Positions 1-48,535 of a DNA stretch of 64,000 nucleotides are shown here, piece after piece (positions within the stretch are counted from its first letter, which is position 1; each line of letters begins with the position of its first letter). The notes beneath the pieces are model-generated. The model made no database searches and had not been told where the DNA came from. It was given only the letters and a program-made list of their open reading frames with translations. This stretch comes from Fidelibacterota bacterium (lineage in GTDB: Bacteria; Fidelibacterota; UBA2242): the NCBI GenBank assembly GCA_016783665.1, contig JADHWC010000002.1:2371-66370 (forward strand). Direction: 5' to 3'. A program made the translations under genes and the position numbers.

Positions 1-380
1 ATCAATATACGCAATGATTTTATACAGCTTTTATAACTCCAAATCATTTTCACATCACAATTTTCAAAACCATTAACATAATTTAGATAAGAATCATTAA
101 TCAGTTGTGGTTCAATTTTTACAATGTACTCACTTACAGTAATACAATATTTTAAAACATAGAATAATAGACTTGTGTACTTGGTAGTAGAGATTATTCT
201 TACTACAGATTCGATTCCCCAAGTTGTTGTATAATCCAAGACTCGCTTTAAGAATTGAATTAGATGCTGTTTTGTTGTTTTCCCACTCTGATGACAAAAA
301 ACAATATATGTTAGTAAATCAATAATACAGGAATCCATAAGCATCATTTTAGTAATTCCCAGCCTATCGCACTCATCCAT
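1..380 (-). CDS. Hypothetical protein. Its 3' end runs off the window start. AT-rich. Absent from the supplied ORF track.
   Basis: I translated the minus strand by hand. ATG is at 380..378 and the frame stays open to position 1 (more than 126 codons, MDECDRLGITKMMLMDSCIIDLL...). No homolog recognised. Confidence 0.3.
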   Translation of the reverse strand, partial: MDECDRLGITKMMLMDSCIIDLLTYIVFCHQSGKTTKQHLIQFLKRVLDYTTTWGIESVVRIISTTKYTSLLFYVLKYCITVSEYIVKIEPQLINDSYLNYVNGFENCDVKMIWSYKSCIKSLRIL

Positions 381-403
381 TTTTGATAAAATAAAATTCT
401 CTG

Positions 404-935
404 CTAAATGGGAATAATCTGGATATTTGAAATCAAAAACAAGGCAGTCGAATATATCATCATTATTCGATATGACAGAATCATCAGAAAAAAAATCACT
501 TTTTCTATAATATTGATATTTTAAAATAACGAAAAACGAAAGTTCACACTTTATTCTTGGTAGTATTTGAAATATGTAAAACTTAATCTCATTTATTTCA
601 ATTTTCCCAAGTATGTGATATAGTGTAGTGACTAATGATGAATCCGATTCAAAATCAGAAAAACACAAATTTCTCAAATATAAAATTATCGTTGATGTTT
701 CGCCTTCAATTAAATTACGATATTCAGTTTTTAACTGATTAATGTCAATAAGATACTCGTTTATTTTTCCTTCGATGTAATCAAACATAAACTTATCATC
801 ATTTTTAGAAATATCCCAGAAATCAGAAATACTAAGGTATGTTTTAAAGTTTTTTAATTTATACGATGGAAGGCTGTCTTTGTGTTTTAATACTTCATTA
901 TCATTAAGATTATATAATGGTAGTATTTCGCTCAT
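404..935 (-). CDS. Hypothetical protein of 177 aa. AT-rich. Absent from the supplied ORF track.
   Basis: Minus-strand ORF found by hand. ATG is at 935..933 (MSEILPLYNLNDNEVLKHKDSLPSYKL...) and the TAG stop at 406..404. Checked codon by codon with no internal stop. It contains an A8 homopolymer at 487-494. Confidence 0.35.
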
Positions 936-999
936 TGCTAAATCCTTTTGTTTAGCCCTTTGTTAAAATTCTATGTTACAATCTCTCATGAATGCCATA

Positions 1000-1293
1000 T
1001 TATAATTTGTTAAAATGGCCACATTGTAGACAGTAATATCCGCCTTTAGATTTATCGGTTTCGGTTACTATTTGTGACTTTTGACATTGAAGACAGCTCG
1101 ATCTATTTGCCTTATAACTTGATTGAGTAGAACTATGATTTGATTCGTTTGTGTCCAGTGATGTATTTTTTACAAGTTTTTCCAAAAGTTCGGTGATCTT
1201 ATTTATTTTAAAATACCAGCACCAAAATTCCCTTAATAAAAGAAAAACGACTACAATGATAGCTATGAAAATGATTGAACTTACAGTTTCCAT
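1000..1293 (-). CDS. Small single-pass membrane protein with a C-terminal C4 zinc ribbon (paralog A').
   Basis: Short N-terminus, then a hydrophobic helix (IIFIAIIVVVFLLL), then positive residues (REFWCWYFKINK), which places the C-terminus in the cytoplasm. CxxC...CxxC (CLQCQK...CLQCGH) at the C-terminus. Shares 26 identical residues (LREFWCWYFKINKITELLEKLVKNTS) with ORF 2883..3155. Confidence 0.55.
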   Translation of the reverse strand: METVSSIIFIAIIVVVFLLLREFWCWYFKINKITELLEKLVKNTSLDTNESNHSSTQSSYKANRSSCLQCQKSQIVTETDKSKGGYYCLQCGHFNKL

Positions 1294-1331
1294 CTTGTCT
1301 CCAATTCTATATAAATGTTAAAAACCTTTGT

Positions 1332-1880
1332 TCAGGCAATTATTAATAAGATGCTTACCAATGTTACAACAATCGAATAAATCATAAAGTAGGTTTGAGC
1401 AAGTGCAATTTTTTCTAATGCAACCGTTTGTCTTTCGTTTAGAGATTGCTCAGTAATATTTTCTAATTTCTCTTGGGTGTCTGCAACCGTAATTGTTTCA
1501 GTTTTCTCTTGGGGCACGATTAATAATGAATCACTATATACGGATTCTGTGCCGCCAAATAATTTTTCAAAACCTTTTTTGTCATAGACACTCAAATTCT
1601 TTTTTGAGCAAATACGTCTAATATCGCTTAGGGGTATGCGAAGTTCGTCTCCGGTTGAATATGAAATAAAAGTAATATACTGACCTTGATATGCTACAAA
1701 CCGGCCTTCATACTCAGAACCATTTACCATAAAAATTTTAATGTAGTTTTCACCGGGTGAATATTTATTAATCAATTCAGCGGACTGCTCAAAGTATCTT
1801 TTCTTTGGTAACTGCGAATAGGACACTCTGAACAATCCAATAAGCAAACATATAATGACAATTTTTTTCATTTTACACAC
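1332..1880 (-). CDS. Secreted or lipoprotein-like protein with a C-terminal hydrophobic anchor. Function unknown.
   Basis: N-terminal signal peptide (MCKMKKIVIICLLIGLF) and a C-terminal hydrophobic helix (YFMIYSIVVTLVSILLIIA). No recognisable catalytic motif. Confidence 0.45.
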   Translation of the reverse strand: MCKMKKIVIICLLIGLFRVSYSQLPKKRYFEQSAELINKYSPGENYIKIFMVNGSEYEGRFVAYQGQYITFISYSTGDELRIPLSDIRRICSKKNLSVYDKKGFEKLFGGTESVYSDSLLIVPQEKTETITVADTQEKLENITEQSLNERQTVALEKIALAQTYFMIYSIVVTLVSILLIIA

Positions 1881-2016
1881 TCCAATATAAAAAGTTTAGC
1901 CGGGACACTCCCACCTATAGCATCCCGGCCTTTATGCCCCGTCGTTCTGCCTGTCCGGCAACCGCTCAGCCACTCCGAACGGAAAACCATTATCTTTTTG
2001 TTTTTTCTGCCTCAGT

Positions 2017-2517
2017 TCAATAAGCTTTATATCCATAAGATTGACTGTATCTGGCTACTTTTTTCCCCGACCTGTTGTCATAAAACGTAATTCTTCCAGT
2101 CGATCCGGCCCTGTCACAGATTTTTGCTAATGTGATCCCAATTCCAACTTTTGTATCATAATCTAATGAATTCCAGATGTAAACATCGATCATCGCTTCG
2201 TTTTGATCAATGTCTAATTTTTTTAAAAGTCCCGAATCATACAATACTTGAAGGTCATCGTTATTGGTTTGGGTGGAATACTTTAGACTTGTGTTTGTTT
2301 TAAAGGTTGTTGAAGGCTCATAAATCCAGCCTTCAACAGTAACCTTAACCCATTTCCCCTCTTTTTGAATCTTTTTTACTTCGGTTCCTTTTAATAGTAC
2401 ACCGATTTTATCTCCATTGGGACTTGACCTAAAATTTTCGCTGTCAGCAATTACTTTACCTGTTTGACTGTATATAATGGAAAAATTAAGAATGAGTATT
2501 AATAATATGTTTTTCAT
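2017..2517 (-). CDS. Secreted protein with a bacterial SH3 (SH3b)-like domain.
   Basis: Signal peptide (MKNILLILILNFSIIYS). The segment SPNGDKIGVLLKGTEVKKIQKEGKWVKVTVEGWIY resembles an SH3_3 fold. Confidence 0.45.
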   Translation of the reverse strand: MKNILLILILNFSIIYSQTGKVIADSENFRSSPNGDKIGVLLKGTEVKKIQKEGKWVKVTVEGWIYEPSTTFKTNTSLKYSTQTNNDDLQVLYDSGLLKKLDIDQNEAMIDVYIWNSLDYDTKVGIGITLAKICDRAGSTGRITFYDNRSGKKVARYSQSYGYKAY

Positions 2518-2537
2518 TTTACCTCCAGATTAGAATT

Positions 2538-2804
2538 TTATACTTCTTTCCCGCAGTATCGACAGACCTTTGCCTCTGATTTAATTAACTCAGCGCAATA
2601 TGGACACTTTTTATTTTCACCACTATCAATCTTTTCTTTTTCAATTTTTTTCTCATCCGGTTTAGAAACTAAAACAATGATAAACCCAATTAACGGACTG
2701 AGAGCTACCGATATTAAAAAATATCCAAAACCAGACTTTCCTTTACTTGAAGCATACATTCCCACAAGAACCGCTAAAATTAACCAGGTGATAATAATTT
2801 CCAT
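2538..2804 (-). CDS. Small two-TM membrane protein with a C-terminal zinc ribbon.
   Basis: Two hydrophobic helices, then a Lys/Glu-rich linker, then CPYC...CRYC. Confidence 0.5.
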   Translation of the reverse strand: MEIIITWLILAVLVGMYASSKGKSGFGYFLISVALSPLIGFIIVLVSKPDEKKIEKEKIDSGENKKCPYCAELIKSEAKVCRYCGKEV

Positions 2805-2882
2805 GATTCCCTCCGATTGTTATGTTTTAAAATACTTTGCCGGGACACGTATCGCCCTATCCGGTCAATATATCAATAATAT

Positions 2883-3155
2883 TTACTTTAGTTTATATCC
2901 GCAATGTTCACATTCAAAAGTATCACCTTGATTGTATTTATTGCACTCAGGACATTTCCATCTGACTGATGTTGATGTATTTTTTACAAGTTTTTCCAAA
3001 AGTTCGGTGATTTTGTTTATCTTGAAATACCAGCACCAAAATTCTCTTAAAAACAGAAAAACAACTAAAATGAATGCGATTAATAGTATTGCGTTTACAC
3101 CTTGAGAAATCGAAAAACCGCCCATATTACCTCCATTTAAGTTTAGCCGGGACAC
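2883..3155 (-). CDS. Small single-pass membrane protein with a C-terminal C4 zinc ribbon (paralog A).
   Basis: TM helix AILLIAFILVVFLFL, then the same 26-aa juxtamembrane block as 1000..1293, then CPEC...CEHC. A GGAGG ribosome-binding site precedes the ATG. Confidence 0.55.
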   Translation of the reverse strand: MSRLNLNGGNMGGFSISQGVNAILLIAFILVVFLFLREFWCWYFKINKITELLEKLVKNTSTSVRWKCPECNKYNQGDTFECEHCGYKLK

Positions 3156-3378
3156 TTTCCACTAAAAACATCCCTGCCTTTTTTGCCCCACCGTAAAGAT
3201 ATATTTTCAATTGGTTTAATACTAATCAGTTTCTTTGGAAGCCATACTTTGCGACCAGTATTATCAATCTGAACCGCTTTATCGGTTTCCGTTAAAATGA
3301 TTGTCTCAATCTCAGTACGATTATTGATTTTTAATATTTGATCGATCTAGGTCATTTAAATAGAATAGGGCTGATAAA

Positions 3379-4296
3379 TTAAATATATAGCTGAATAATA
3401 TCGTCGATAAAAGTTCTTTTCTTCGCACTAATAATACTAACATTAATGTAAAAATCTTCATCCCACAGAATTTTTTCTATTATTTGTTCGATATATTTCC
3501 ATTTTTCATTAGAAGAATATGAAGATTTATATATTTTATGTAAATCAATTCTATCCATTTGAAATAATTCATCTAAATCACTCACAGGATGTCCTGCTAA
3601 TGTAATCCCATAAAGACCTTTTAAATAATTAAAATCATCTTCGGAGCTATATTTTTTTATATATTTGATATATTCAGGTAATTCTTCTTTTAATTCTTTT
3701 AATTCTCTAAACATATATTCTTTATTAGGAACATTTTTTAAGTCTTTCCTTTTATATCTTATATACAATTCTTTATATTCAAAGTCATTATAATCAATAG
3801 AGTAGACCATATCGGTTGTTTCAAATACTTTTATACTATCTTCCTTATAATAAATTTCAACCAATATCTTAATATTTTTTAATTGGTATTCACTATCATT
3901 GACTAATTTTATTTTTATATCATCAACTCTATAACTAGATAAAAATAAATTTTTATATTCCTTTAACTCAACACTTACTTTATCTAATGGAATTTTTTGG
4001 TTGTTAAAGTATATTCCAACAATTATGATAATCAACAACGGCGGTAGTATATATAACGAGATTTTTAATAATCTTTTCCCTACTTTAATAAACATATTTT
4101 TAATTTTTTTAAAACTACTTCTTGAGAATAAATAGACTTCAATTAAAAAGATACCTAATAAATATATTAACCATGTAAAGGAAGAATATTCAAAATCATC
4201 CCATTCACTTCCTAGAATTCCTAACACTAAAACAAGTAGAAACAAGGGTGCTATAATTCCAGTAATTTTAGTAATAGGAGAGAAATTATTTGCCAT
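3379..4296 (-). CDS. Membrane protein of 305 aa (about 3 N-terminal TM helices plus a Lys/Tyr/Glu-rich soluble domain). Function unknown. AT-rich.
   Basis: Hydrophobic N-terminal segments. Strong AT bias like the rest of the 1-4300 island. No conserved motif recognised. Confidence 0.45.
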   Translation of the reverse strand: MANNFSPITKITGIIAPLFLLVLVLGILGSEWDDFEYSSFTWLIYLLGIFLIEVYLFSRSSFKKIKNMFIKVGKRLLKISLYILPPLLIIIIVGIYFNNQKIPLDKVSVELKEYKNLFLSSYRVDDIKIKLVNDSEYQLKNIKILVEIYYKEDSIKVFETTDMVYSIDYNDFEYKELYIRYKRKDLKNVPNKEYMFRELKELKEELPEYIKYIKKYSSEDDFNYLKGLYGITLAGHPVSDLDELFQMDRIDLHKIYKSSYSSNEKWKYIEQIIEKILWDEDFYINVSIISAKKRTFIDDIIQLYI

Positions 4297-5213
4297 AATA
4301 ATATTTCCTACTATAATATATAGATAACAAATCCCACTTCAAAATAATTTTTTCCCGTTTGGTGTAAGTGTGGGTATAAATGAATATCAAGGGGGGTGCC
4401 CCCCGCAGGTGGGGGGTGTGCCCGGTTTCAAAAAACTATTTCTTATTTGATTATACAGCATATTATCTTTAACACCGTGTGCGTGAAAGCCCCCACAATA
4501 TTCCAGTAGTCATTCATTTCAATTTATATATAGGGCATTAGGTATCTTTAAATGGTAGTAGAGGCAATAATATTTGTTGATAGAATGTTAGATTTGAATA
4601 CTACCTGATTGAAATATCGGCATATTATAATGAAAATAAAAACAGTAAGAGTCCAATTGAATAACTGCAAATAGAGGAAATACTTTCAGAAATTGATTTC
4701 TCGTCGAGAAAAGGATTGACAGAATGACAAAATTAAGCCCGTATACCCGTTCAGTATACCCCGGAATTGATTTTCTCGTCGGGAAATATTTCCGGTATCC
4801 TAATTCCCAAGCTGGATACGGGGGTTCTATTCCCCTCACCCGCTCAAAGTCGTAATTGGATAACTTACATTTCTTACGTCATTGCAGGTTTGGCATTCAT
4901 CATAAATAGCTCGTTCCCAAGCCCCAGCTTGGGAATGCCAGCGAAAGACGTGATGGTTATTTGGAACCTGCCTTATGAAATAGTTTAAATCTTTGAAAGA
5001 GAAAACTAATTTAAAGTTTATTCACAGGGTAAATCGAATTGAACATTGGAATTTTATAGGAGACTACTTATAGATAACTCTTTCCAGGAGTAGAGCATAT
5101 ATTTACTATTGAAGTTGTATATGATAAATGGCGAAATTAGGCACGCGATTTTTAAATAATATCAGAAGAAAAACAGAGCAAAATAAATATCCATAAACTC
5201 TAACAATATATAC

Positions 5214-6500
5214 ATGATAAAAATTATCTCAGTAAAGAATGGAAGCAGGGCCGATGTTGCCGGTATTTGTGCTAACGATTATTTAATCTCGCTCAACGGT
5301 CATGAAATTAACGATCTCTTGGATTACCATTTCTGCCAGGCTGAAGAAAATCTGACTATTACATTTAGCCGTAATAAATCACAACAACAGGTATTGATAC
5401 AAAAAGCATTCGATGAGGACCTGGGAATTGAAGTGGATGGTTTGCGTGTTAGAGCCTGTTCGAATAATTGTATATTCTGCTTTATCAAACAGAATCCTCC
5501 GGGAATGAGGCAAGCGATATATTTCTGTGATGAAGATTATCGTTATTCATTTCTCTACGGGAGTTACATTACATTAACCGATCTAAATGATAAGGAACTT
5601 TACCGTATCGTCGAGCAGCGACTATCACCGTTATATATTTCGGTTCATGCCACCGAGCCGGATGTTAGAAAATCAATATTTCGGTTCAGATTCGATGATC
5701 GTTTAATGGAGAAAATAGATTATTTACACCGGAACCGGATAGAACTACATACTCAGATTGTGCTTATGCCCGGGATGAACGACGGGGAAATTCTTGAGAA
5801 AACGATTACCGATCTATATAGATTCAGGGATTCTATAAAAACACTGGCGCTTGTGCCGGTGGGGTTGACAAGACATCGAAAAAAATTGCCGCACTTAAAT
5901 CCTGTGACGAAAGAATTGGCAAGTGAGCTGGTGTATCGCTCCGAATATTGGAACCGTCGATATAGGAACAATGAAGGCGATCCGTTTGTCTACTTATCTG
6001 ATGAATTTTATCTGCTGGCGAACCAGCCGTTTCCAATCACCGGTCACTATGGTCCCTATTACCAGGTTGAGAATGGTGTGGGATTATGCCAGCAACTGAT
6101 TGATTCTGTGGAACAACAGCGTCAGGATTTCCCGAAAACTTTGTCAAAACCAAAGAGGATTGGGTTTATCACGAGCAAATTGGCGGAACCGGTACTGTGT
6201 GATTATCTGTTGCCTTATTTGAATATGATCGCTAATCTTACGGTTGAGACACTGACGGTGACGAATCACTTTTTCGGCGAAACAGTTACAGTATCAGGGC
6301 TATTGACCGGGCAGGATATTGTTGAACAATTTCCTAAATCGTTAAAATATGATTTGATCTTTTTACCACCGAGGTGTATAAATGAAGACGGGTTGCTTTT
6401 GGATGATATGACTCCGGAGGATATAGGAAAAGCGGTCGGGAGCCCGGTTTTAGTTGGAAGTGATGATATAGTCGAGATGGTAACATATGGCGAAATGTGA
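5214..6500 (+). CDS. PDZ domain-containing radical SAM protein (DUF512-type).
   Basis: N-terminal PDZ-like segment. CSNNCIFCF (CxxxCxxC) radical-SAM cluster motif. Its end overlaps the der start. Confidence 0.65.
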   Translation: MIKIISVKNGSRADVAGICANDYLISLNGHEINDLLDYHFCQAEENLTITFSRNKSQQQVLIQKAFDEDLGIEVDGLRVRACSNNCIFCFIKQNPPGMRQAIYFCDEDYRYSFLYGSYITLTDLNDKELYRIVEQRLSPLYISVHATEPDVRKSIFRFRFDDRLMEKIDYLHRNRIELHTQIVLMPGMNDGEILEKTITDLYRFRDSIKTLALVPVGLTRHRKKLPHLNPVTKELASELVYRSEYWNRRYRNNEGDPFVYLSDEFYLLANQPFPITGHYGPYYQVENGVGLCQQLIDSVEQQRQDFPKTLSKPKRIGFITSKLAEPVLCDYLLPYLNMIANLTVETLTVTNHFFGETVTVSGLLTGQDIVEQFPKSLKYDLIFLPPRCINEDGLLLDDMTPEDIGKAVGSPVLVGSDDIVEMVTYGEM

Positions 6501-9534: not shown

Positions 9535-10128
9535 GTGAATTATCAAATAAAACGTACAAAAGAATTCTCTCAGAAGATCAAGGGATCCAGGTTCATCGGC
9601 AGAGCTTACCCGGTGGAATCCCGTGAGTCGGCTAAATCCATCATCAAAGCAGTTGAAGATGAACACCGCAAAGCAACTCACGTATGCTGGGCGTATCGGA
9701 TACTACAGAAGGGAGAAAGTCTTGGCTATTGCTCCGACGCCGGTGAACCGCATGGATCAGCAGGTCCGCCGATACTGGCAGCGATTGGGGGGCGCCAACT
9801 GGTCAATACATTATGTTTGGTAATACGCTATTTTGGTGGTACAAAATTAGGGATCGGCGGGTTAATCCGAGCCTATGGAGGAACAGCGGCGGATGTTCTG
9901 GAATTAGCCGAAAAAAAATCCTTTATAGGGACGCTCAATCTCGCAATACTGGTGTCAATAAATGATTATTCGGATCTAATGAGGATCTTGCGAAAATATC
10001 GTCTATCAGTTCAACCGGAATTCAGTTCCGAATCAGTAACTGTAAAGATACAAACTACTCCCTGTGATCTGGATCGACTACAGAACGATGTCCGGTCGAT
10101 ATCGTCGGTAATTCTGAAAAACGAGTAA
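9535..10128 (+). CDS. yigZ: YigZ / IMPACT family protein.
   Basis: IMPACT-N like core (GSRFIGRAYPV... HVCWAYR... SDAGEPHGSAG) plus a UPF0029 C-terminus. Confidence 0.7.
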   Translation: MNYQIKRTKEFSQKIKGSRFIGRAYPVESRESAKSIIKAVEDEHRKATHVCWAYRILQKGESLGYCSDAGEPHGSAGPPILAAIGGRQLVNTLCLVIRYFGGTKLGIGGLIRAYGGTAADVLELAEKKSFIGTLNLAILVSINDYSDLMRILRKYRLSVQPEFSSESVTVKIQTTPCDLDRLQNDVRSISSVILKNE

Positions 10129-10144
10129 TATTTTTAAAAAAAAT

Positions 10145-10306
10145 ATCCTGCAATGGCAGGACGTTTTTAGAACCGTAATCATCACGGTGGGCACCTCTCG
10201 AACGGCTCAAGTTTCCTCGACATGGAGGCATGCTTTCCACGCCCGAAGCCCGGCTCCCATATTTTAGGTGTTGGTTCTAAAAATATAGGTTACACCATTG
10301 CAGGAT
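10145..10306. ncRNA. Candidate structured RNA or bidirectional terminator element with nested long inverted repeats between convergent genes.
   Basis: A perfect 12-bp inverted repeat ATCCTGCAATGG (10145-10156) pairs with CCATTGCAGGAT (10295-10306). An inner pair TTTTAGAACC (10165-10174) pairs with GGTTCTAAAA (10273-10282). Together they enclose about 100 nt of GC-rich sequence. The 5'-proximal hairpin CCTGCAATGGCAGG followed by TTTTT also looks like an intrinsic terminator for yigZ. Confidence 0.3.
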
Positions 10307-10399
10307 AAATTTCAAAGATCTCTACTTTCAATATACTTACCATAGACGTAATGGTCAAGGCATTTTAGTATAAATAGTTAAAATATTTCGGGAATGTAT

Positions 10400-16792: not shown

Positions 16793-16809
16793 ATTAGATA
16801 TAAGAATTT

Positions 16810-17183
16810 GAAGTTAGTCGGTAAGCCGAATTCTGTTTCCGGCAGCTGCCGGACGGCAGTCATTTATCTACATACAGCCTTACAACTGATGTTAAGCGAT
16901 CTACCCGAGAATTTAACGGAACGGGCAATTCCAATTCTCTGCTTGATCTTGCTCCAGGTGGGGTTTACCCTGCCCCCGACATTGCTGTCGGGGCGGTGCG
17001 CTCTTACTTTAATCCCGCTTAATTGCAGGACGCACCATTTCACCCTTGACCGCCAAAGGCGGACGGTATTGTTTCTGTGGCACTTTCCTTCCCGTTGCCG
17101 GGACTCCGTGTTACGAAGCACCCTGCCCTGCGGAGTTCGGACTTTCCTCCCCGATAAAAATTGGGGCGACTGCCTGACTAACT
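16810..17183 (-). ncRNA. rnpB: RNase P RNA, bacterial type A.
   Basis: The minus strand reads GAAGUUAGUCAGGCAGUCGCC...GGAAAGUCCG...ACAGAAA...AGGGUGAAAUGGUGCG...GUAAGAGCGCACC...GGAAACAGAAUUCGGCUUACCGACUAACUUC. P1 pairs the 5' and 3' ends. The universally conserved P4 and J11/12 motifs are present. Confidence 0.85.
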
Positions 17184-17984
17184 TCAGATAAATTCCTCCT
17201 CATTAATTGAACGGATTTCACTGGCTTGTTCGTCCCAGTACAGCATCCGTCCACAAAATTCACAACGTATCGGATTCGCTCCGGAGCGAATCTCTACAAC
17301 TTTTTGCGGTGGGACAATTGTGTGACAGCCCCCGCAAGAAACCTGAGCTGGAATATATTCAATATTACCCTTTTTATCTACTTTTTCTTCGAAAACTTGG
17401 CGAATGGGTACAATTGCTAAACCATTCCTGGCTTTGGATACACGCTCATATTCCCTTATATATCGTAGTGAAATAAATTTTACGACAGCTTCCCGGTTCT
17501 TCATTAGTTTTTCTTGAACATCGTTGGTTTTTTCGTTGGTTTTTTCCAACTGTTCACGCCGGAATTTTATTTCATTTAATTTATCCTTCAATGTCAGATC
17601 TTTACCTTTGATTGCTTCTTTGAGATTTTCCATCTCTTCATTTAGTTCGAGGATTTTATATTCTGCCGTGTCGATATTCTGGCGAACAGTTTCAATTTCA
17701 GATGTTAGCGCATCATACTCTTTATTTGATGTAACAAGGTATAGTTGATCCTGGTATCTTTTCAAATGTTCTTTGTTATCCTTGATCTGTCCCTCGAGGT
17801 CTTTTGTTTCCAGAATGATTTCCTTTTCGCGGCTGCGATCGTTTTCAAGCTCCCTTTCCAGGTTGGCAATATTTTTTTCAAGTGTTTCAACAATCTGAGG
17901 AAGATCACCTTTTAATTCGTCTATCTTTAGTAGCTCGTTATCAATCTTTTGTAGTTTTATAAGAAATTTCAAGTCTTTGAACAT
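17184..17984 (-). CDS. Coiled-coil protein with a C-terminal C4 zinc ribbon (COG1579-like).
   Basis: Long heptad-rich Glu/Lys/Leu region, then CGGCHTIVP...CEFCGRMLY. Confidence 0.65.
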   Translation of the reverse strand: MFKDLKFLIKLQKIDNELLKIDELKGDLPQIVETLEKNIANLERELENDRSREKEIILETKDLEGQIKDNKEHLKRYQDQLYLVTSNKEYDALTSEIETVRQNIDTAEYKILELNEEMENLKEAIKGKDLTLKDKLNEIKFRREQLEKTNEKTNDVQEKLMKNREAVVKFISLRYIREYERVSKARNGLAIVPIRQVFEEKVDKKGNIEYIPAQVSCGGCHTIVPPQKVVEIRSGANPIRCEFCGRMLYWDEQASEIRSINEEEFI

Positions 17985-18092
17985 TTATCCTCCGTTCTAT
18001 TCAAAAATGAAAATTGCACCTTCCTGGGTGCAATTTAAATCTTGATATATGGGTTGAGCTTTCTGTAATGCTTTCAAAACCTTACCTTTCTG

Positions 18093-18166
18093 TGGGCGAT
18101 ATCCGATTTGAACGGATGACCTTCCCGATGTGAACGGGACACTCTGACCAGCTGAGCTAATCGCCC
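18093..18166 (-). tRNA. tRNA-Val (anticodon CAC).
   Basis: The minus strand reads GGGCGAT TA GCTC AGCTGGTCA GAGT G TCCCG TTCACAT CGGGA AGGTC ATCCG TTCAAAT CGGAT ATCGCCC A. This gives a clean cloverleaf with a 7-bp acceptor stem, anticodon loop TTCACAT and T-loop TTCAAAT. CCA is not encoded. Confidence 0.8.
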
Positions 18167-21305: not shown

Positions 21306-23504
21306 TTAAGGAACAATAAATATTTTATATTTTCCGGCTTTTTCGATTTTACCGATAACAGATGCGCTTGTTTTTCCGGATTCCTTTAGTCGTTTAACCA
21401 TCTCAGCGGCATTGGGTTCCGGCGTCGCAACCAATAATCCGCCTGAAGTCTGAGCGTCACAAAGTATTACCCTAAAAACGGAGCTGACTTTGTCATCCCA
21501 GTGGATGCGATCTTTCAGATAATTCATATTTGCGTCTGTGCCTCCGGGGATGACGTTTCTGCGAACCATTTCCACTGTGTTTGGAATGACCGGTACTTTC
21601 GAACTAATAATCCGGGCGGATATATCACCATCCATAAGCATCTCATAGAGGTGCCCTAATAGTCCGAATCCGGTAACATCGGTACAGGCGTGAACCGGAA
21701 ATTCTCTGATAATATCAGCGGCAGCGGCATTCAGCTCGCTCATAATATTGACGATAGCATTCCGGGCAGCGTCGTCCAGCAGACCCCTTTTCAATGCTGT
21801 CGATAAAATGCCGATCCCGACCGGTTTGGTAAGAATAAGCGCGTCACCGGGCTGCGATCCGACATTGCGCCAGATTGCGTCCGGATGAACTGTTCCGGTA
21901 ACGGCAAGACCGAACTTGGGCTCGTTGTCTTCGATGGTGTGACCACCCAGGATCGGGATTCTTGCCTTATGGGTAATATGTTGGGCGCCTTCAAGAATAC
22001 GCTCCAGTACTTTCATAGGGAGTCGCTTTTCAGGGAATGCCGCAATGTTTAATGCAAAAAGGGGTTTTCCGCCCATGGCGTAGATATCGCTGAGTGAATT
22101 TGCCGCGGCAATCCGTCCAAAATCATAAGGATCATCCACGATCGGTGTGAAAAAGTCTACGGTCGAAACCAGCGAAATTTCATCCGTTAAGCGAAAAACC
22201 GCCGCATCATCGGAGCTTTCAAAGCCGACCTGTGTGTATTCAGAAGGTATAGTCTGAATTTTTTTCAGAATTTCTTCCAGATGCTGTGGTCGGATCTTAC
22301 AGGCGCATCCTAATCCGTGAGTATATTGAGTGAGACGAATATCGGAGATATCGGTAAATGTGACTTCTCTCAGTATATTTTCAGTAAGGTTGCGGTAAGC
22401 TTCGGATATTTTTCTAACGGCAGCGCTGACATCCTGCGCTGTTGTGGTTCTGCCTACCGAAAAGCGGATGCTGCCCAGGATTCGTTCGTCACTAAGCCCC
22501 ATTGCTTTCAAAACATGGGATGGTTCCATGCTGTCGGCATGACAGGCGGCTCCGGCGGATGCGGCAATGTCCGGAAGATCGGATAAAAGTGTATTGGCGT
22601 CGATACCGGGGAAATAGCTGTTAATTGTATTGGGGAGTTTCTGTTCCGGATGACCATTTAGTTTGATTTCCGGGATTGCTTCTTTTAATTCGTTCCAGAA
22701 TTGATCGCCCCGAGATTTTTGTTCGGTAAGAATTGTTTTTTCATTTGAGTGAAAAACTTCCGCAGCGGTTCCTAATCCAACGATTTCCAGCACATTTTCA
22801 GTACCCGGTCGCAAGCCTCGCTCATGTCCGGCGCCATGAATGAGTGGTTGGATCTTAGTTCCGGTTTTAATATATAGAGAGCCGACTCCTTTGGGAGCAT
22901 TCATTTTATGACCGGCAACAGATAGTAAATCGACCTCTAATTCCTGAACATCCACATGGATTTTTCCCACTGCCTGAGCCGCATCGGTATGCATCAGGAT
23001 ATTCCGTTCGTGAGCTATTTGGGCAATTTCCCTGATCGGCTGAATAGTCCCAACTTCGTTATTCGCCAGCATGATAGTGATGAGAATCGTATCTGAGCGG
23101 ATGGCGTGAACCAGCGATTTGGTATCCACCAAACCATATTCATCAACCGGGAGATAGGTGACGCTATATCCATTATTCTCAAGAAATCGACACACTTCCA
23201 GGATTGCCGGATGTTCCACAGCGCTGGTGACGATATGTCCCGAATGATACAGGCTGGCGATGCCTTTGACCGCTATATTGTTCGATTCGCTGCCGCCACT
23301 GGTGAAGATGATCTCATCGGCGGAACAGCTCAGCAGTGCAGCCAATTGTTTCCGGGAATGCTCAATTGCTTTTTTACCTTCCTGACCATAATAGTGACTG
23401 CTGGAGGGATTCCCGTAGTGGTTTTTCAGAAAAGGCATCATGGCGTTAATGACTTCCGGGATCATCGGTGTGCTGGCGTTATGGTCTAAGTAGATTGGTT
23501 TCAT
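21306..23504 (-). CDS. selD: Fusion protein: NifS/IscS-like cysteine desulfurase (N-terminal) plus selenophosphate synthetase SelD (C-terminal).
   Basis: The N-terminal ~380 aa is a class V PLP fold (SGGSESNN, HK PLP-lysine region, SAAGAACHA). The C-terminal half starts with IRLTQYTHGLGCACKIRPQHLEEIL, matching the SelD N-terminus (E. coli [24 protein letters not shown]), then AIR-synthase-like domains. The catalytic position is Cys, not Sec. Confidence 0.8.
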   Translation of the reverse strand: MKPIYLDHNASTPMIPEVINAMMPFLKNHYGNPSSSHYYGQEGKKAIEHSRKQLAALLSCSADEIIFTSGGSESNNIAVKGIASLYHSGHIVTSAVEHPAILEVCRFLENNGYSVTYLPVDEYGLVDTKSLVHAIRSDTILITIMLANNEVGTIQPIREIAQIAHERNILMHTDAAQAVGKIHVDVQELEVDLLSVAGHKMNAPKGVGSLYIKTGTKIQPLIHGAGHERGLRPGTENVLEIVGLGTAAEVFHSNEKTILTEQKSRGDQFWNELKEAIPEIKLNGHPEQKLPNTINSYFPGIDANTLLSDLPDIAASAGAACHADSMEPSHVLKAMGLSDERILGSIRFSVGRTTTAQDVSAAVRKISEAYRNLTENILREVTFTDISDIRLTQYTHGLGCACKIRPQHLEEILKKIQTIPSEYTQVGFESSDDAAVFRLTDEISLVSTVDFFTPIVDDPYDFGRIAAANSLSDIYAMGGKPLFALNIAAFPEKRLPMKVLERILEGAQHITHKARIPILGGHTIEDNEPKFGLAVTGTVHPDAIWRNVGSQPGDALILTKPVGIGILSTALKRGLLDDAARNAIVNIMSELNAAAADIIREFPVHACTDVTGFGLLGHLYEMLMDGDISARIISSKVPVIPNTVEMVRRNVIPGGTDANMNYLKDRIHWDDKVSSVFRVILCDAQTSGGLLVATPEPNAAEMVKRLKESGKTSASVIGKIEKAGKYKIFIVP

Positions 23505-23623: not shown

Positions 23624-24805
23624 TTACAGGTCTGTTTCCAGCGCATTTTCATAGTGTATCAGATTCAGGGGAATATCAGGGTATTTATCTGCAAAATAAT
23701 GGTATTTATAAGGATAAAATTGTTCTTGGGAAAATTTTGTTTCATAGGCTTTCTGATTTTGAATGATAAAATCTACCTCGTGTTTATTTTGAGTTCGCCA
23801 GTATTTAATATCCATTTCATCATATTTGTCTAGTAATCTACGAAATATGTAATTTTCAAATAGATTACCCCTGTCTTCTCTAAAAAAAAGGGCGTTGAAA
23901 TTATGTAAAAAATGATTTCTTAAACCGAGGTCGTTAAAATAGACTTTCGGTGATTTTCTCAGCTCTTTACTCAACTTACGGTAAAATGGCTTTATCAGAC
24001 TAATGTGAAAAGATTTCTGCATTAGTTCAGTATAGGCATTAATCGTAAGATGATTCATGCTGAAATCACTCGCTATATTATTATAACTGACGATGCCGCC
24101 GACTCTTTCGGCATATATTTGAAGTATAGTCAAATACGCATTTGGATATTTTAGATTAGATTCAAGGGCGTCTTTCTTCACATAAGAGTTCGCAATTTCC
24201 GCTAATATATGTTTTTTCTCTTCAATATCTGGTTCCAAAATGACTTCAGGATATCCGCCGAAAATGATATATTCCTGTAAGAGAGTGTATATTTCATCTC
24301 TGAAGATTGGTGGAATTTTTTTGTTTATGAAAGGCGTTAATTCTGTTCTATCTCTAAAAATAAGCATTTCTTCAAAACTTAAGGTCGGTAGTTTGAACAA
24401 TCGTTTTCTGCCAGCCAGAGAGTCCGTAAATTTTTTATCTATATAAAAACTTGATGAACCACTGACAATAAATTTAATTTTTTCATGGTATTTGTCGTAA
24501 TGATATTTTAAAAAATTAGAGGGAAAGTCAAGATATTGAATCTCATCAATAAAAATAATCGTTTGTCTGGTACGATCAATAGGCGGAATTACCAGAAACA
24601 ACTTAGCCGGATGTTCATTAAGTATTTTTAAAATATTAGGATCCTCAAGAGTAAGAAAGAAAACCTGATTTCGATCCTTTTTCAATTCTTTCATTAATTG
24701 TTGCATAAGCGTAGTTTTTCCGGTTTGCCTGGCTCCAACAATAAGGCTAATTTGTTTTTTTTTGAGATGGTTTTTTAATTTATTAAATAAAAGTCGCTTT
24801 TTCAT
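23624..24805 (-). CDS. AAA+ ATPase with a DUF4143-type C-terminal domain.
   Basis: P-loop GARQTGKTT. This architecture is common in Bacteroidota. Confidence 0.7.
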   Translation of the reverse strand: MKKRLLFNKLKNHLKKKQISLIVGARQTGKTTLMQQLMKELKKDRNQVFFLTLEDPNILKILNEHPAKLFLVIPPIDRTRQTIIFIDEIQYLDFPSNFLKYHYDKYHEKIKFIVSGSSSFYIDKKFTDSLAGRKRLFKLPTLSFEEMLIFRDRTELTPFINKKIPPIFRDEIYTLLQEYIIFGGYPEVILEPDIEEKKHILAEIANSYVKKDALESNLKYPNAYLTILQIYAERVGGIVSYNNIASDFSMNHLTINAYTELMQKSFHISLIKPFYRKLSKELRKSPKVYFNDLGLRNHFLHNFNALFFREDRGNLFENYIFRRLLDKYDEMDIKYWRTQNKHEVDFIIQNQKAYETKFSQEQFYPYKYHYFADKYPDIPLNLIHYENALETDL

Positions 24806-25114: not shown

Positions 25115-26068
25115 TTAGATAGAATCGAATAACAAACTGAAATCAACGCTCGTAACGGAATGAGTCAAGGCGCCTATTGAAATAACATCCACACCGCTTT
25201 CGGCATAATCTCGTATGGTTTCAATAGATATATTTCCCGATGCTTCGAAAAGGATATGATTGTATAGTTTTTTTGCTTTGGATTCAGCGATCAGTGCGGG
25301 AATTTGCTCCGGCGCAAAATGATCAAACATGATCACAAAAGGGAATGGAGCCGTGATGTTCTTCAAATAGCCCAGCATTTCGCGGTATTCATCCGTATTT
25401 GTCACTTCTATTTCAATAAAGCGCAGATAGGGATAAGATGAGATCATTTCCGTGACCGCCAGTTTTAGACTGTCGGGATTTTTCGACTTTCGCAGAATCG
25501 CCAGGTGGTTTTCCTTCAGCATTGCCGCATCGTGAAGTCCCAGCCTATGAGTCAGTCCGCCGCCGCATTGAATCGCGCGCTTGTCCAGCAATCCCCACAG
25601 AGTTTTGCGGGTGCCGACGACGAATGTATCCGTCTCCGAAATCCGCTCCACGTATGACCTTGTCGCAGTCGCTATTCCACTCAGCCGCTGAAGAATATTA
25701 AGAATTGTTCGCTCGACGGTAATAATCTCTGTCGCCTTGCCTTCAATGTGTAACAGAACATCACCGGTTTCGATGACGTCTCCGTTTTTGAAAGACGAAG
25801 TGGCGGTTATTTTTTTCCGGGATAAAAAGAATATGGTTTCATCAAGTCCGGCGATGACTGCGGAGGATTTGGCGATTATCCCGGCTTTCAGAGTTGTTTC
25901 ATAAGATTGTTCAGGTGTCAGTGACGCATCGCCTTTGCCGATATCTTCATCCATCATTCGGGAGAAAAAATCGCCGACATAATCCCGGTAAGATACATTA
26001 CCGAGGCTTAACTCTATATCGGCGTCAAAAGCGTGGCGAATAACCTGGTTTCTATCCGACTGTTCCAT
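25115..26068 (-). CDS. nadC: Nicotinate-nucleotide pyrophosphorylase (quinolinate phosphoribosyltransferase) family.
   Basis: TRKTLWGL, QCGGGLTHRLGLHDAAMLKENH and the C-terminal ISIGALTHS motifs of the type II PRTase QPRT fold. Confidence 0.7.
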   Translation of the reverse strand: MEQSDRNQVIRHAFDADIELSLGNVSYRDYVGDFFSRMMDEDIGKGDASLTPEQSYETTLKAGIIAKSSAVIAGLDETIFFLSRKKITATSSFKNGDVIETGDVLLHIEGKATEIITVERTILNILQRLSGIATATRSYVERISETDTFVVGTRKTLWGLLDKRAIQCGGGLTHRLGLHDAAMLKENHLAILRKSKNPDSLKLAVTEMISSYPYLRFIEIEVTNTDEYREMLGYLKNITAPFPFVIMFDHFAPEQIPALIAESKAKKLYNHILFEASGNISIETIRDYAESGVDVISIGALTHSVTSVDFSLLFDSI

Positions 26069-48310: not shown

Positions 48311-48461
48311 GGTAATTCCCTCCGAAGATATGTTTACTTTTCATTGTTCAATATATCACAAAATAATAAATATGGCAATATTTTGGTGATGGTTTCGAAA
48401 TAAATGGAAGATTATTGATGTGATGGAAATAAAAAAGCTTCCATTATCGGAGATAACTTTG

Positions 48462-48535
48462 TAGCGGTGCAGGGACTCGAACCCCGGACACGCGGATTAT
48501 GATTCCGCTGCTCTAACCAACTGAGCTACACCGCC
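48462..48535 (-). tRNA. tRNA-Met (anticodon CAT).
   Basis: The minus strand reads GGCGGTG TA GCTC AGTTGGTTA GAGC A GCGGA ATCATAA TCCGC GTGTC CGGGG TTCGAGT CCCTG CACCGCT A. Clean cloverleaf, G1-U72 wobble, CAU anticodon. Elongator Met, initiator and Ile2(k2C) cannot be distinguished by eye. Confidence 0.75.

Follow-up and report, generated by a model that had tools for sequence, protein, structure and literature searches.

A low-GC island in a Marinimicrobia genome as a probable mosaic of mobile-element cargo cassettes encoding small envelope proteins

The left end of a 64,000-nt stretch of a Fidelibacterota bacterium (Candidatus (Neo)Marinimicrobia; assembly GCA_016783665.1, contig JADHWC010000002.1, positions 2,371 to 66,370, hereafter "the window") carries a low-GC island of seven open reading frames (ORFs), here called genes A to G. 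The island is probably a horizontally acquired mosaic of small cargo cassettes derived from integrative elements or phages. Such cassettes circulate in this and neighbouring phyla, and several of them adjoin tRNA genes. F, E–D, and C–B followed by A are independently mobile cassettes: F and C are headed by a leader of ~60 nt and E by a short variant of it, and a 30-nt junction marks the start of A. The products are envelope proteins typical of the "morons" of phages and mobile elements, namely the membrane zinc-finger proteins B/F and E and the exported barrel proteins D and C, and the seven genes do not appear to constitute one system. The features of the island, all on the minus strand, are as follows (TM, transmembrane; aa, amino acids).

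1..935, minus: gene A, N-terminal 311 codons of a 534-aa protein; single open frame that overruns the left end of the window
933..962, minus: conserved 28-30-nt junction (CAAAGGGCTAAACAAAAGGATTTAGCAATG) that takes in the start codon of A, recognized by sequence identity
1000..1293, minus: gene B, 97 aa; N-terminal TM helix, LREFWCWYFKINKI helix, C-x2-C-x17-C-x2-C zinc ribbon
1332..1871, minus: gene C, 179 aa; signal peptide, Sm/SH3-like small beta-barrel, disordered linker, C-terminal TM anchor
1869..1949, minus: full ~60-nt leader upstream of C; repeat family D3/D11, 94 bits with covariance model (CM) R1
2017..2517, minus: gene D, 166 aa; signal peptide, SH3b domain, conserved C-terminal domain of ~80 aa
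2019..3062, minus: block of D, E, the short leader and the 3' two-thirds of F, 95.3% identical in nucleotides to other Marinimicrobia genomes
2538..2804, minus: gene E, 88 aa; two hydrophobic helices and a C-terminal C4 zinc ribbon; ends 20 nt upstream of D
2828..2848, minus: short leader variant (core GTGTCCCGGC) upstream of E, recognized by sequence comparison
2883..3125, minus: gene F, 80 aa; TM helix, LREFWCWYFKINKI helix, W-x-C-x2-C-x3-N-x6-C-x2-C zinc finger
3123..3198, minus: full ~60-nt leader upstream of F; 78 bits with CM R1
3199..3330, minus: start-less open frame of ~60 codons (…TEIETIILTETDKAVQIDNTGRKVWLPKKLISIKP…; …TETDKAVQIDNTGRKVWLPKKLISIKP…) between G and the leader of F
3379..4296, minus: gene G, 305 aa; three N-terminal hydrophobic segments and a K/E/Y-rich domain of ~210 aa
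4388..4416, minus: alternative G6/C6/G6 hairpins, terminator-like on this strand, at the right edge of the low-GC segment

The compositional contrast is pronounced, with a GC content of 0.305 in window positions 1-4430 against 0.417 in 5214-64000, and the lowest value of any other 4.43-kb stretch of the window is 0.353. Codon usage of the pooled island genes differs from that of 34 long core ORFs by a Jensen–Shannon (JS) value of 0.069; 200 size-matched control sets averaged 0.016 and did not exceed 0.057. Within the island, composition is uneven, with a GC content of 23% in G, 27% in A and 31-34% in B to F. All seven ORFs lie on the minus strand and all frames are intact in the window copy. 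At the right border, the G6-TG-C6-GCAGGT-G6 hairpin pair (4391-4416) is the sole occurrence of its kind in the 64 kb. These observations bear out what a preliminary description of this DNA had claimed about its left end, i.e., a drop in GC content, a single gene orientation, and a G-rich hairpin pair at the border. The island is flanked by unremarkable genes, namely a DUF512 radical-SAM gene, der, and the gene for a Por_Secre_tail protein. Leftward, the island extends at least 2.6 kb past the window on metagenome contig L006 (L numbers designate related loci and contigs), and its true left end lies beyond the contigs reached.

Recurrence of island cassettes at other loci

The block of D, E, short leader and partial F at 2019-3062 matches L022:9434-10499 (blastn against L022-L026) between unrelated flanks, in metagenome-assembled genomes (MAGs) including GCA_030626665.1 and UBA9312 (GCA_003527965.1). 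Horizontal acquisition, which had been proposed from composition, is thus also indicated by the recurrence of this DNA in other MAGs at another position of the chromosome. The gene order at that site is dnaK, tRNA-Cys, tRNA-Leu, then an F pseudogene, E and D, followed by relB/yafQ and hsp20. There, E and D are intact and remain a pair after relocation, while the F copy (L022:9390-9640) has no canonical start and contains an in-frame TAA (KYN*GD). Genes G, C, B, and A are absent from the loci where D-E-F recurs.

Gene C recurs in two other settings. In L194, a homolog 85% identical to C adjoins tRNA-Arg(cct) in a 2-kb low-GC insertion beside rimP-nusA-infB, the cassette having a GC content of 0.30 vs 0.43. 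In L196, an E-like gene (77% identity to E) is followed after 16 nt by a C homolog of 72% identity, and these two genes occupy one end of an element that also encodes Phage_rep_O, DnaB, HTH_17, N6_N4_Mtase (an N6/N4 methyltransferase), and Phage_integrase. The cargo end of this element follows a partial tRNA-like sequence, which ARAGORN does not call. Other D homologs, at 45-50% identity, are found in Neomarinimicrobiota, Cloacimonadota, and others, including one that follows an Arm-DNA-bind_5/Phage_integrase gene within a low-GC island (L016) and one beside Toprim, HTH_17, and tRNA-Arg (L020). Overall, related cassettes adjoin tRNA-Cys/Leu in L022 and L036, and tRNA-Arg in L194 and L020.

Short conserved non-coding pieces join different genes in five loci of a segment map. 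The junction at the start of A is 100% identical to L196:1648-1677 and L194:11674-11701 despite differing surrounding genes. The ~60-nt leader (CTTTACGGTGGGGCAnAAAGGCCGGGATGC-loop-GTGTCCCGGCTAAACTT) lies 15-30 nt before F and C, and other full copies precede a 300-aa D-like gene (L036:7282-7364), C (L194:9922-10003), and the E-like gene (L196:325-405). Overall, CM R1 recognizes six full leader copies at 78-100 bits, two of them in the window, with the copy in L195 duplicating that in L194; across 391 kb of related loci, nothing beyond the known full copies scored above 22 bits. In viral contigs, a strict 24-base leader pattern yielded 0 matches, and a loose pattern (GGGATG-N10-18-GTGTCCCGGC) yielded 120+ chance matches, none with the full motif.

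The leader stem GCCGGGAUGC/GUGUCCCGGC could form a hairpin of 11-12 bp, in which the G·U pairs work on the coding strand only. By eye, the leader shows no convincing fit to sigma-70, Bacteroidetes-type, or extracytoplasmic function (ECF) consensus sequences, and it is absent from Rfam. From its sequence, a promoter, an untranslated-region (UTR) hairpin, a terminator, or a recombination site were considered as possible roles. Scans for sigma-70-type promoters and terminators found no enrichment over shuffled sequences apart from the G/C hairpin at the island border, and Rfam returned no matches for window 1-5300 at the gathering score or at E<=1.

The preliminary description had treated the island ORFs as one module and had put forward their conservation as a neighbourhood in other genomes as the property to look for. 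The loci above largely contradict this proposal: D-E-F, C, and A each recur independently, and the set as a whole is not conserved elsewhere. A tblastn comparison of all island proteins to about 60 related loci, in which genes were called with our own heuristic, revealed no co-occurrence past the D-E-F and E-C pairs.

As a separate observation, a conserved stretch CATGTATATTTATGTATATTTTGTCATCTGAAACCGGATACGGAAnnGGATACGGATT lies 3' of tRNA genes in four loci (L022:9100-9160, L036, L194:~9700-9760, and L196:~140-182). This post-tRNA stretch contains repeated GGATACGG sequences, which could represent integrase arm-type sites or an element end; GGATACGG is also present once in the window, at ~4812-4820.

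The island genes and their products

Gene E matches Zn_ribbon_3 (PF13248) at 32.1 bits (cut-off 27) and contains two hydrophobic segments, in agreement with the earlier view of E as a two-TM zinc-ribbon protein. It also matches phrog_8436 over residues 1-87 (E=1.1e-21), and full-length relatives occur on 30 viral contigs at varied positions. On contigs L257-261, these relatives lie between genes that look by eye tail-chaperone-like and a 1090-aa gene likewise read by eye as a tape measure, a placement typical of moron insertions. The L022 copy of E is 97.7% identical to that of the window. Because the loop between the two helices of E is KGK-rich, the positive-inside rule is ambiguous for this protein; judged from sequence, it is plausible that the zinc ribbons of B, E, and F face the cytoplasm. 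Throughout, signal peptides and TM helices were called from hydropathy together with AF2 models whose input alignments were shallow (16 and 6 sequences).

The SH3b-like character attributed to D in the preliminary description is confirmed by a match to SH3_3 (PF08239) at 30.0 bits (cut-off 27), and PDB searches also identified the SH3b domain. The C-terminal domain of D, with the motif ...SGKK[LI]A[RK]YSQSxG[FY]K.Y, is absent from Pfam and PHROGs and had no clear match in the PDB searches. It also occurs as standalone signal-peptide proteins of ~100-120 aa, encoded between repressor-like helix-turn-helix (HTH) genes and integrases (L055, L061) or among phage-like genes (L059); Pfam and PHROG scans assigned these standalone proteins to no family.

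For gene C, the signal peptide-like N-terminus and C-terminal TM helix described earlier are retained, and the start is moved from 1880 to the ATG at 1871. Only seven homologs of C were found in the databases. Sm1/Sm2 motifs and a cytoplasmic RNA-binding hexamer, the marks of the Hfq/Sm family, are not features of C.

Genes B and F share a 127-nt repeat at 85% identity (1159-1285 vs 2973-3099), consistent with their earlier identification as paralogs, and assemblies break at this repeat. The GTG at 3155 previously taken as the start of F lies within the conserved non-coding motif, and the start is instead the ATG at 3125. Identical copies of B are found on metagenome contigs L006-L008. Exhaustive HMMER searches recovered relatives of F in 585 representative clusters (E<=1e-3), with a family consensus made of an N-terminal TM helix, LREFxCWYFKINxIxxLLExI, and, in many members, W-x-C-x2-C-x3-N-x6-C-x2-C. 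F and most of the family display a RanBP2-type pattern, for which PF00641 scores 16.8 bits, short of its cut-off of 27. At least 54 viral contigs carry the TM+WYFKIN module, the equivalent of phrog_28494, a family of unknown function. In many of these contigs (L199-L205, L223-L233, and others), the protein adjoins genes that look by eye terminase-like and portal-like. A scan of viral contigs for close relatives of D, F, and G alone found nothing. Given the matches of E to phrog_8436, of D to SH3_3, and of F and B to 585 clusters, the earlier statement that none of the island ORFs resembles a characterized family was too strong.

Genes E, C, and B/F are under purifying selection. Their ratios of nonsynonymous to synonymous substitution rates (dN/dS) range from 0.12 to 0.30 (E 0.12 vs L196; B vs F 0.30), which argues that these are real genes. 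The L022 copies of E and D gave values of 0.52 and 0.34 from 3 and 7 differing sites, respectively, and these carry little weight. Both E and F are preceded by GGAGG, which resembles a ribosome-binding site (RBS).

Gene A (GC 0.269) had been described as two ORFs (404..935 and 1..380) that in fact form one frame with no intervening stop, and a full-length copy is found at L006:454-2058. Its wide conservation (85 matches) is confined to the C-terminal ~125 aa, which fall outside the window. Invariant residues in this domain (W..E..P..D..EYQG.QHF.P..FG..RD..K) are consistent with a PD-(D/E)xK nuclease. Members of the family give weak matches to DUF2726 and CoiA_nuc, those to DUF2726 involving 6 of 14 members and falling below the cut-off (best E 4e-4), and a PDB profile search with the domain returned nothing significant. 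Relatives of the domain include NUMOD1 fusions and a protein that a Caudoviricetes record annotates as a "restriction enzyme". Full-length homologs of A adjoin a resolvase and a VRR_NUC nuclease, and none of the other island genes.

Gene G is the most AT-rich gene of the island (GC 0.231) and an orphan: it is present only on contigs identical to the window locus, has zero matches in Pfam, PHROGs, PADLOC, and NCBIfam, and has no viral relatives. Its three TM segments were judged by eye. Downstream of G, the frame at 3199-3330 contains no ATG, GTG, or TTG start and is probably a gene remnant.

Around the island, the leftward extension on L006 (L006:2169-3579) encodes two proteins that matched no family, one of 166 aa with TM and coiled-coil character and a multi-TM one of 192 aa on the opposite strand. 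To the right, 780 nt separate the island from the DUF512 gene (window 4431-5213; GC 0.34, no ORFs). This interval includes direct repeats AATTGATTT(T)CTCGTCG(A/G)GAAA at ~4688-4712 and ~4765-4790, and a 9-bp hairpin TTCCCAAGC-CCCA-GCTTGGGAA near 4915-4937 with nested complementary segments around it. It could encode a candidate small RNA of no described type, terminated by the minus-strand hairpin at 4388-4405. A suspected tRNA or tmRNA remnant at 4700-4850 was found neither by ARAGORN (default and relaxed) nor by blastn-short with neighbouring tRNAs.

Elsewhere in the window, a second low-GC pocket (~0.31) at 23624-24805, minus strand, contains a 393-aa ORF with a P-loop-like GARQTGKTT motif, located between a 732-aa ORF (21306..23504) and a 317-aa ORF (25115..26068); this may be another acquired gene. 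More low-GC 1-kb windows are found near 43.7-44.5 kb and 57.7 kb. Ordinary housekeeping RNAs include 6S RNA (10141-10309) and a bacterial class A RNase P RNA (16806-17185), both on the minus strand, and tRNA genes are found at 18092-18166 (tRNA-Val) and 48461-48535 (tRNA-Met).

Pairing of zinc-ribbon and exported proteins, and competing explanations

The pairing of small membrane zinc-ribbon proteins with exported partners, already noted in the preliminary description, is borne out at several loci. In addition to the E–D pair, retained after relocation, and the E-like gene that precedes a C-like gene in L196, small proteins (<=150 aa) with a TM helix and a C4 zinc ribbon make up 5 of the 95 genes within two positions of a D-family gene vs 0 of 168 farther away (Fisher one-sided p=0.006). 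This comparison included 30 non-redundant D-family loci and excluded the window and a near-identical copy. The five zinc-ribbon neighbours belong to at least four unrelated families and carry the ribbon at either end. Moreover, a 258-aa protein in L050 (L050:892-1668) begins with a C4 zinc ribbon, continues through one TM helix and an SH3-like domain, and ends in a D-type C-terminal domain. This fusion suggests a topology in which the ribbon is cytoplasmic and the SH3 and D domains are outside, and it argues for a functional link between the zinc-ribbon and exported parts; judged by its domain order, it would act as a "Rosetta stone" for the E and D pair.

We propose that E may form a two-part membrane unit with the exported product of the next gene downstream (D in the window, C in L196). 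The zinc ribbon would face the cytoplasm, and the barrel would reside in the periplasm, tethered near the peptidoglycan. Such a unit might benefit the mobile element at the cell envelope, through superinfection exclusion or another block to phage or DNA. A broader version of this proposal is possible, if doubtful: zinc-ribbon proteins and exported barrel proteins (SH3b plus "SGKKLAKYSQ" domain, or Sm/SH3-like) could represent a widespread, undescribed two-component envelope module, sometimes fused, carried by phages and integrative elements of the FCB group, and involved in phage exclusion or trans-envelope signalling, with the Marinimicrobia cassettes bearing a ~60-nt regulatory or recombination leader.

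Several points weigh against the reading of the island as mobile-element cargo and against the role proposed for the E and barrel unit. Neither window 1-5300 nor the 2.6 kb of leftward extension on L006 encodes an integrase, and no tRNA or tRNA fragment was detected in window 4300-5300 by ARAGORN (default and relaxed) or by blastn-short with the tRNAs of related loci. Likewise, no empty site was seen, since each contig with the exact DUF512 protein also carries G. The mobile-element origin and the mobility of the window copy are thus deduced from its relatives. Neither G nor the N-terminal part of A has homologs that would tie it to mobile elements. The putative leader hairpin is compatible with all copies, and 8 of its 12 pairs are invariant, with covariation counts no higher than in shuffled alignments. 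The zinc-ribbon enrichment depends on five loci, on crude gene calls, and on our own rules for TM helices and zinc ribbons. Finally, superinfection exclusion, which we would consider the most likely role of the E and barrel unit, is purely conjectural, and no characterized homolog was found.

Were the island a system dedicated to anti-phage defence or signalling, which the preliminary description had suggested, the whole cluster would act together: the barrels would sense an envelope event, its transduction would fall to the TM zinc-finger proteins, and either A or the membrane proteins would be the effectors. The setting in a low-GC island would fit such a system, as would the enriched adjacency of zinc-ribbon and exported proteins and their fusion in one protein, the PD-(D/E)xK-like domain in A, and the proximity of a relB/yafQ toxin-antitoxin pair to the L022 copy. 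B and F also match the PADLOC "2TM effector" model weakly (E~2e-4). However, matches to PADLOC-DB v2 are all weak and sub-threshold (E 1e-4 to 4e-4), are confined to TM/zinc-finger stretches of B, E, and F, and are lacking for A, C, D, and G, and neither family scans nor a look through the ORFs revealed an ATPase, a kinase, or a sigma factor, the scans also yielding no other signalling partner. The gene set is also not conserved, with D-E-F, C, and A each found without the others, and the full-length homologs of A stand beside a resolvase and VRR_NUC instead of membrane proteins. A cluster-wide defence system is thus unlikely, and the earlier suggestion has no direct support.

The small ORFs could instead be mostly non-functional leftovers of a decaying prophage or mobile element, given the F pseudogene in L022 (no start, internal stop), the start-less remnant at 3199-3330, the orphan status and extreme AT content of G, and the assembly breaks at the B/F repeat. 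We regard this as quite improbable, because the dN/dS of E, C, and B/F is 0.12-0.30, the seven frames are intact in the window, E–D remains intact after relocation, and RBS-like GGAGG sequences precede E and F. An integron-like cassette array, with the repeated GTGTCCCGGCTAAAC motif as attC site, is very improbable. Small same-strand ORFs of unknown function separated by a repeated imperfect palindrome, a motif end (GGCTAAAC, or GGCTTAAC in L036) that resembles the inverse core site RYYYAAC, and cassettes shuffled between loci are all reminiscent of integrons. Yet the motif is located 5' of ORFs, 15-30 nt before the RBS, and not 3'; it lacks paired RYYYAAC...GTTRRRY sites 50-140 nt apart, its stem being internal (GCCGGGAUGC/GUGUCCCGGC); and no locus inspected encodes an IntI-type integrase, with phage-type integrases next to tRNA genes instead. 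The leader was thus rejected as an attC site on the basis of its architecture.

Comparison with described systems

Little has been described of the mobile elements of Marinimicrobia (SAR406), an abundant lineage without cultured members. In this lineage, the locus and its relatives illustrate how small cargo cassettes, marked by a conserved leader, move between tRNA-adjacent islands, and they reveal that a membrane zinc-finger protein and an exported protein of SH3 type and unknown function repeatedly occur as neighbours or fused. If this pair were an exclusion or defence device, a role would follow for two large "unknown" phage protein families, phrog_8436 and phrog_28494. As it stands, the locus is a typical flexible-genome island of hypothetical proteins, of a fairly ordinary kind.

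Integrons resemble the island in their shuffled cassettes and in short ORFs of one orientation that alternate with a palindromic element, and differ in that the island element lies 5' of the ORFs, without attC architecture or IntI. In contrast to the SH3b proteins of the endolysin and NlpC/P60 type, D has no catalytic domain, its SH3b domain being followed by an undescribed alpha/beta domain of 80 aa, and it is paired with a membrane zinc-ribbon protein. The L050 fusion and the E and D pair reproduce the layout of zinc-finger anti-sigma factors (ZAS/zf-HC2) (N-terminal zinc finger, TM helix, extracytoplasmic domain). However, the zinc site of E and L050 is a C4 ribbon and not HxxxCxxC, there is no match to the zf-HC2 Pfam family, and the gene tables of the inspected E and D loci include no adjoining sigma-factor gene.

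Phage morons involved in superinfection exclusion include the small prophage lipoproteins Cor and Llp and the T4 membrane proteins Imm and Sp. The island proteins resemble these as small membrane or exported proteins found on phages and prophages, often next to an integrase or repressor or amid structural genes, as illustrated by the standalone D domain encoded between a repressor-like HTH gene and an integrase in L055. They differ from them in that no sequence or fold relationship to characterized exclusion proteins was found.

The closest described framework for the island is that of the tycheposons of Prochlorococcus, tRNA-seeded genomic islands built by cargo-carrying integrative elements (10.1101/2020.12.28.424599). 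Differences include the absence of an integrase, tRNA, or att repeat from the visible 7 kb around the window copy, integrases being found instead in L196 and L016, and the ~60-nt leader before individual cargo genes, for which no counterpart was noted in the tycheposon report (10.1101/2020.12.28.424599). The likeness is one of organization in the related loci. In L196, a tRNA and cargo are followed by RepO and DnaB as replication module, then by an excisionase-like HTH gene and a tyrosine integrase; tRNAs in L022, L036, and L194 are accompanied by low-GC cargo of unknown function; the same cargo is found at differing tRNA sites; and the host is a marine, streamlined, uncultured lineage. The window copy itself has an atypical GC content and shares its C and E cassettes with the integrase/RepO/DnaB element of L196.

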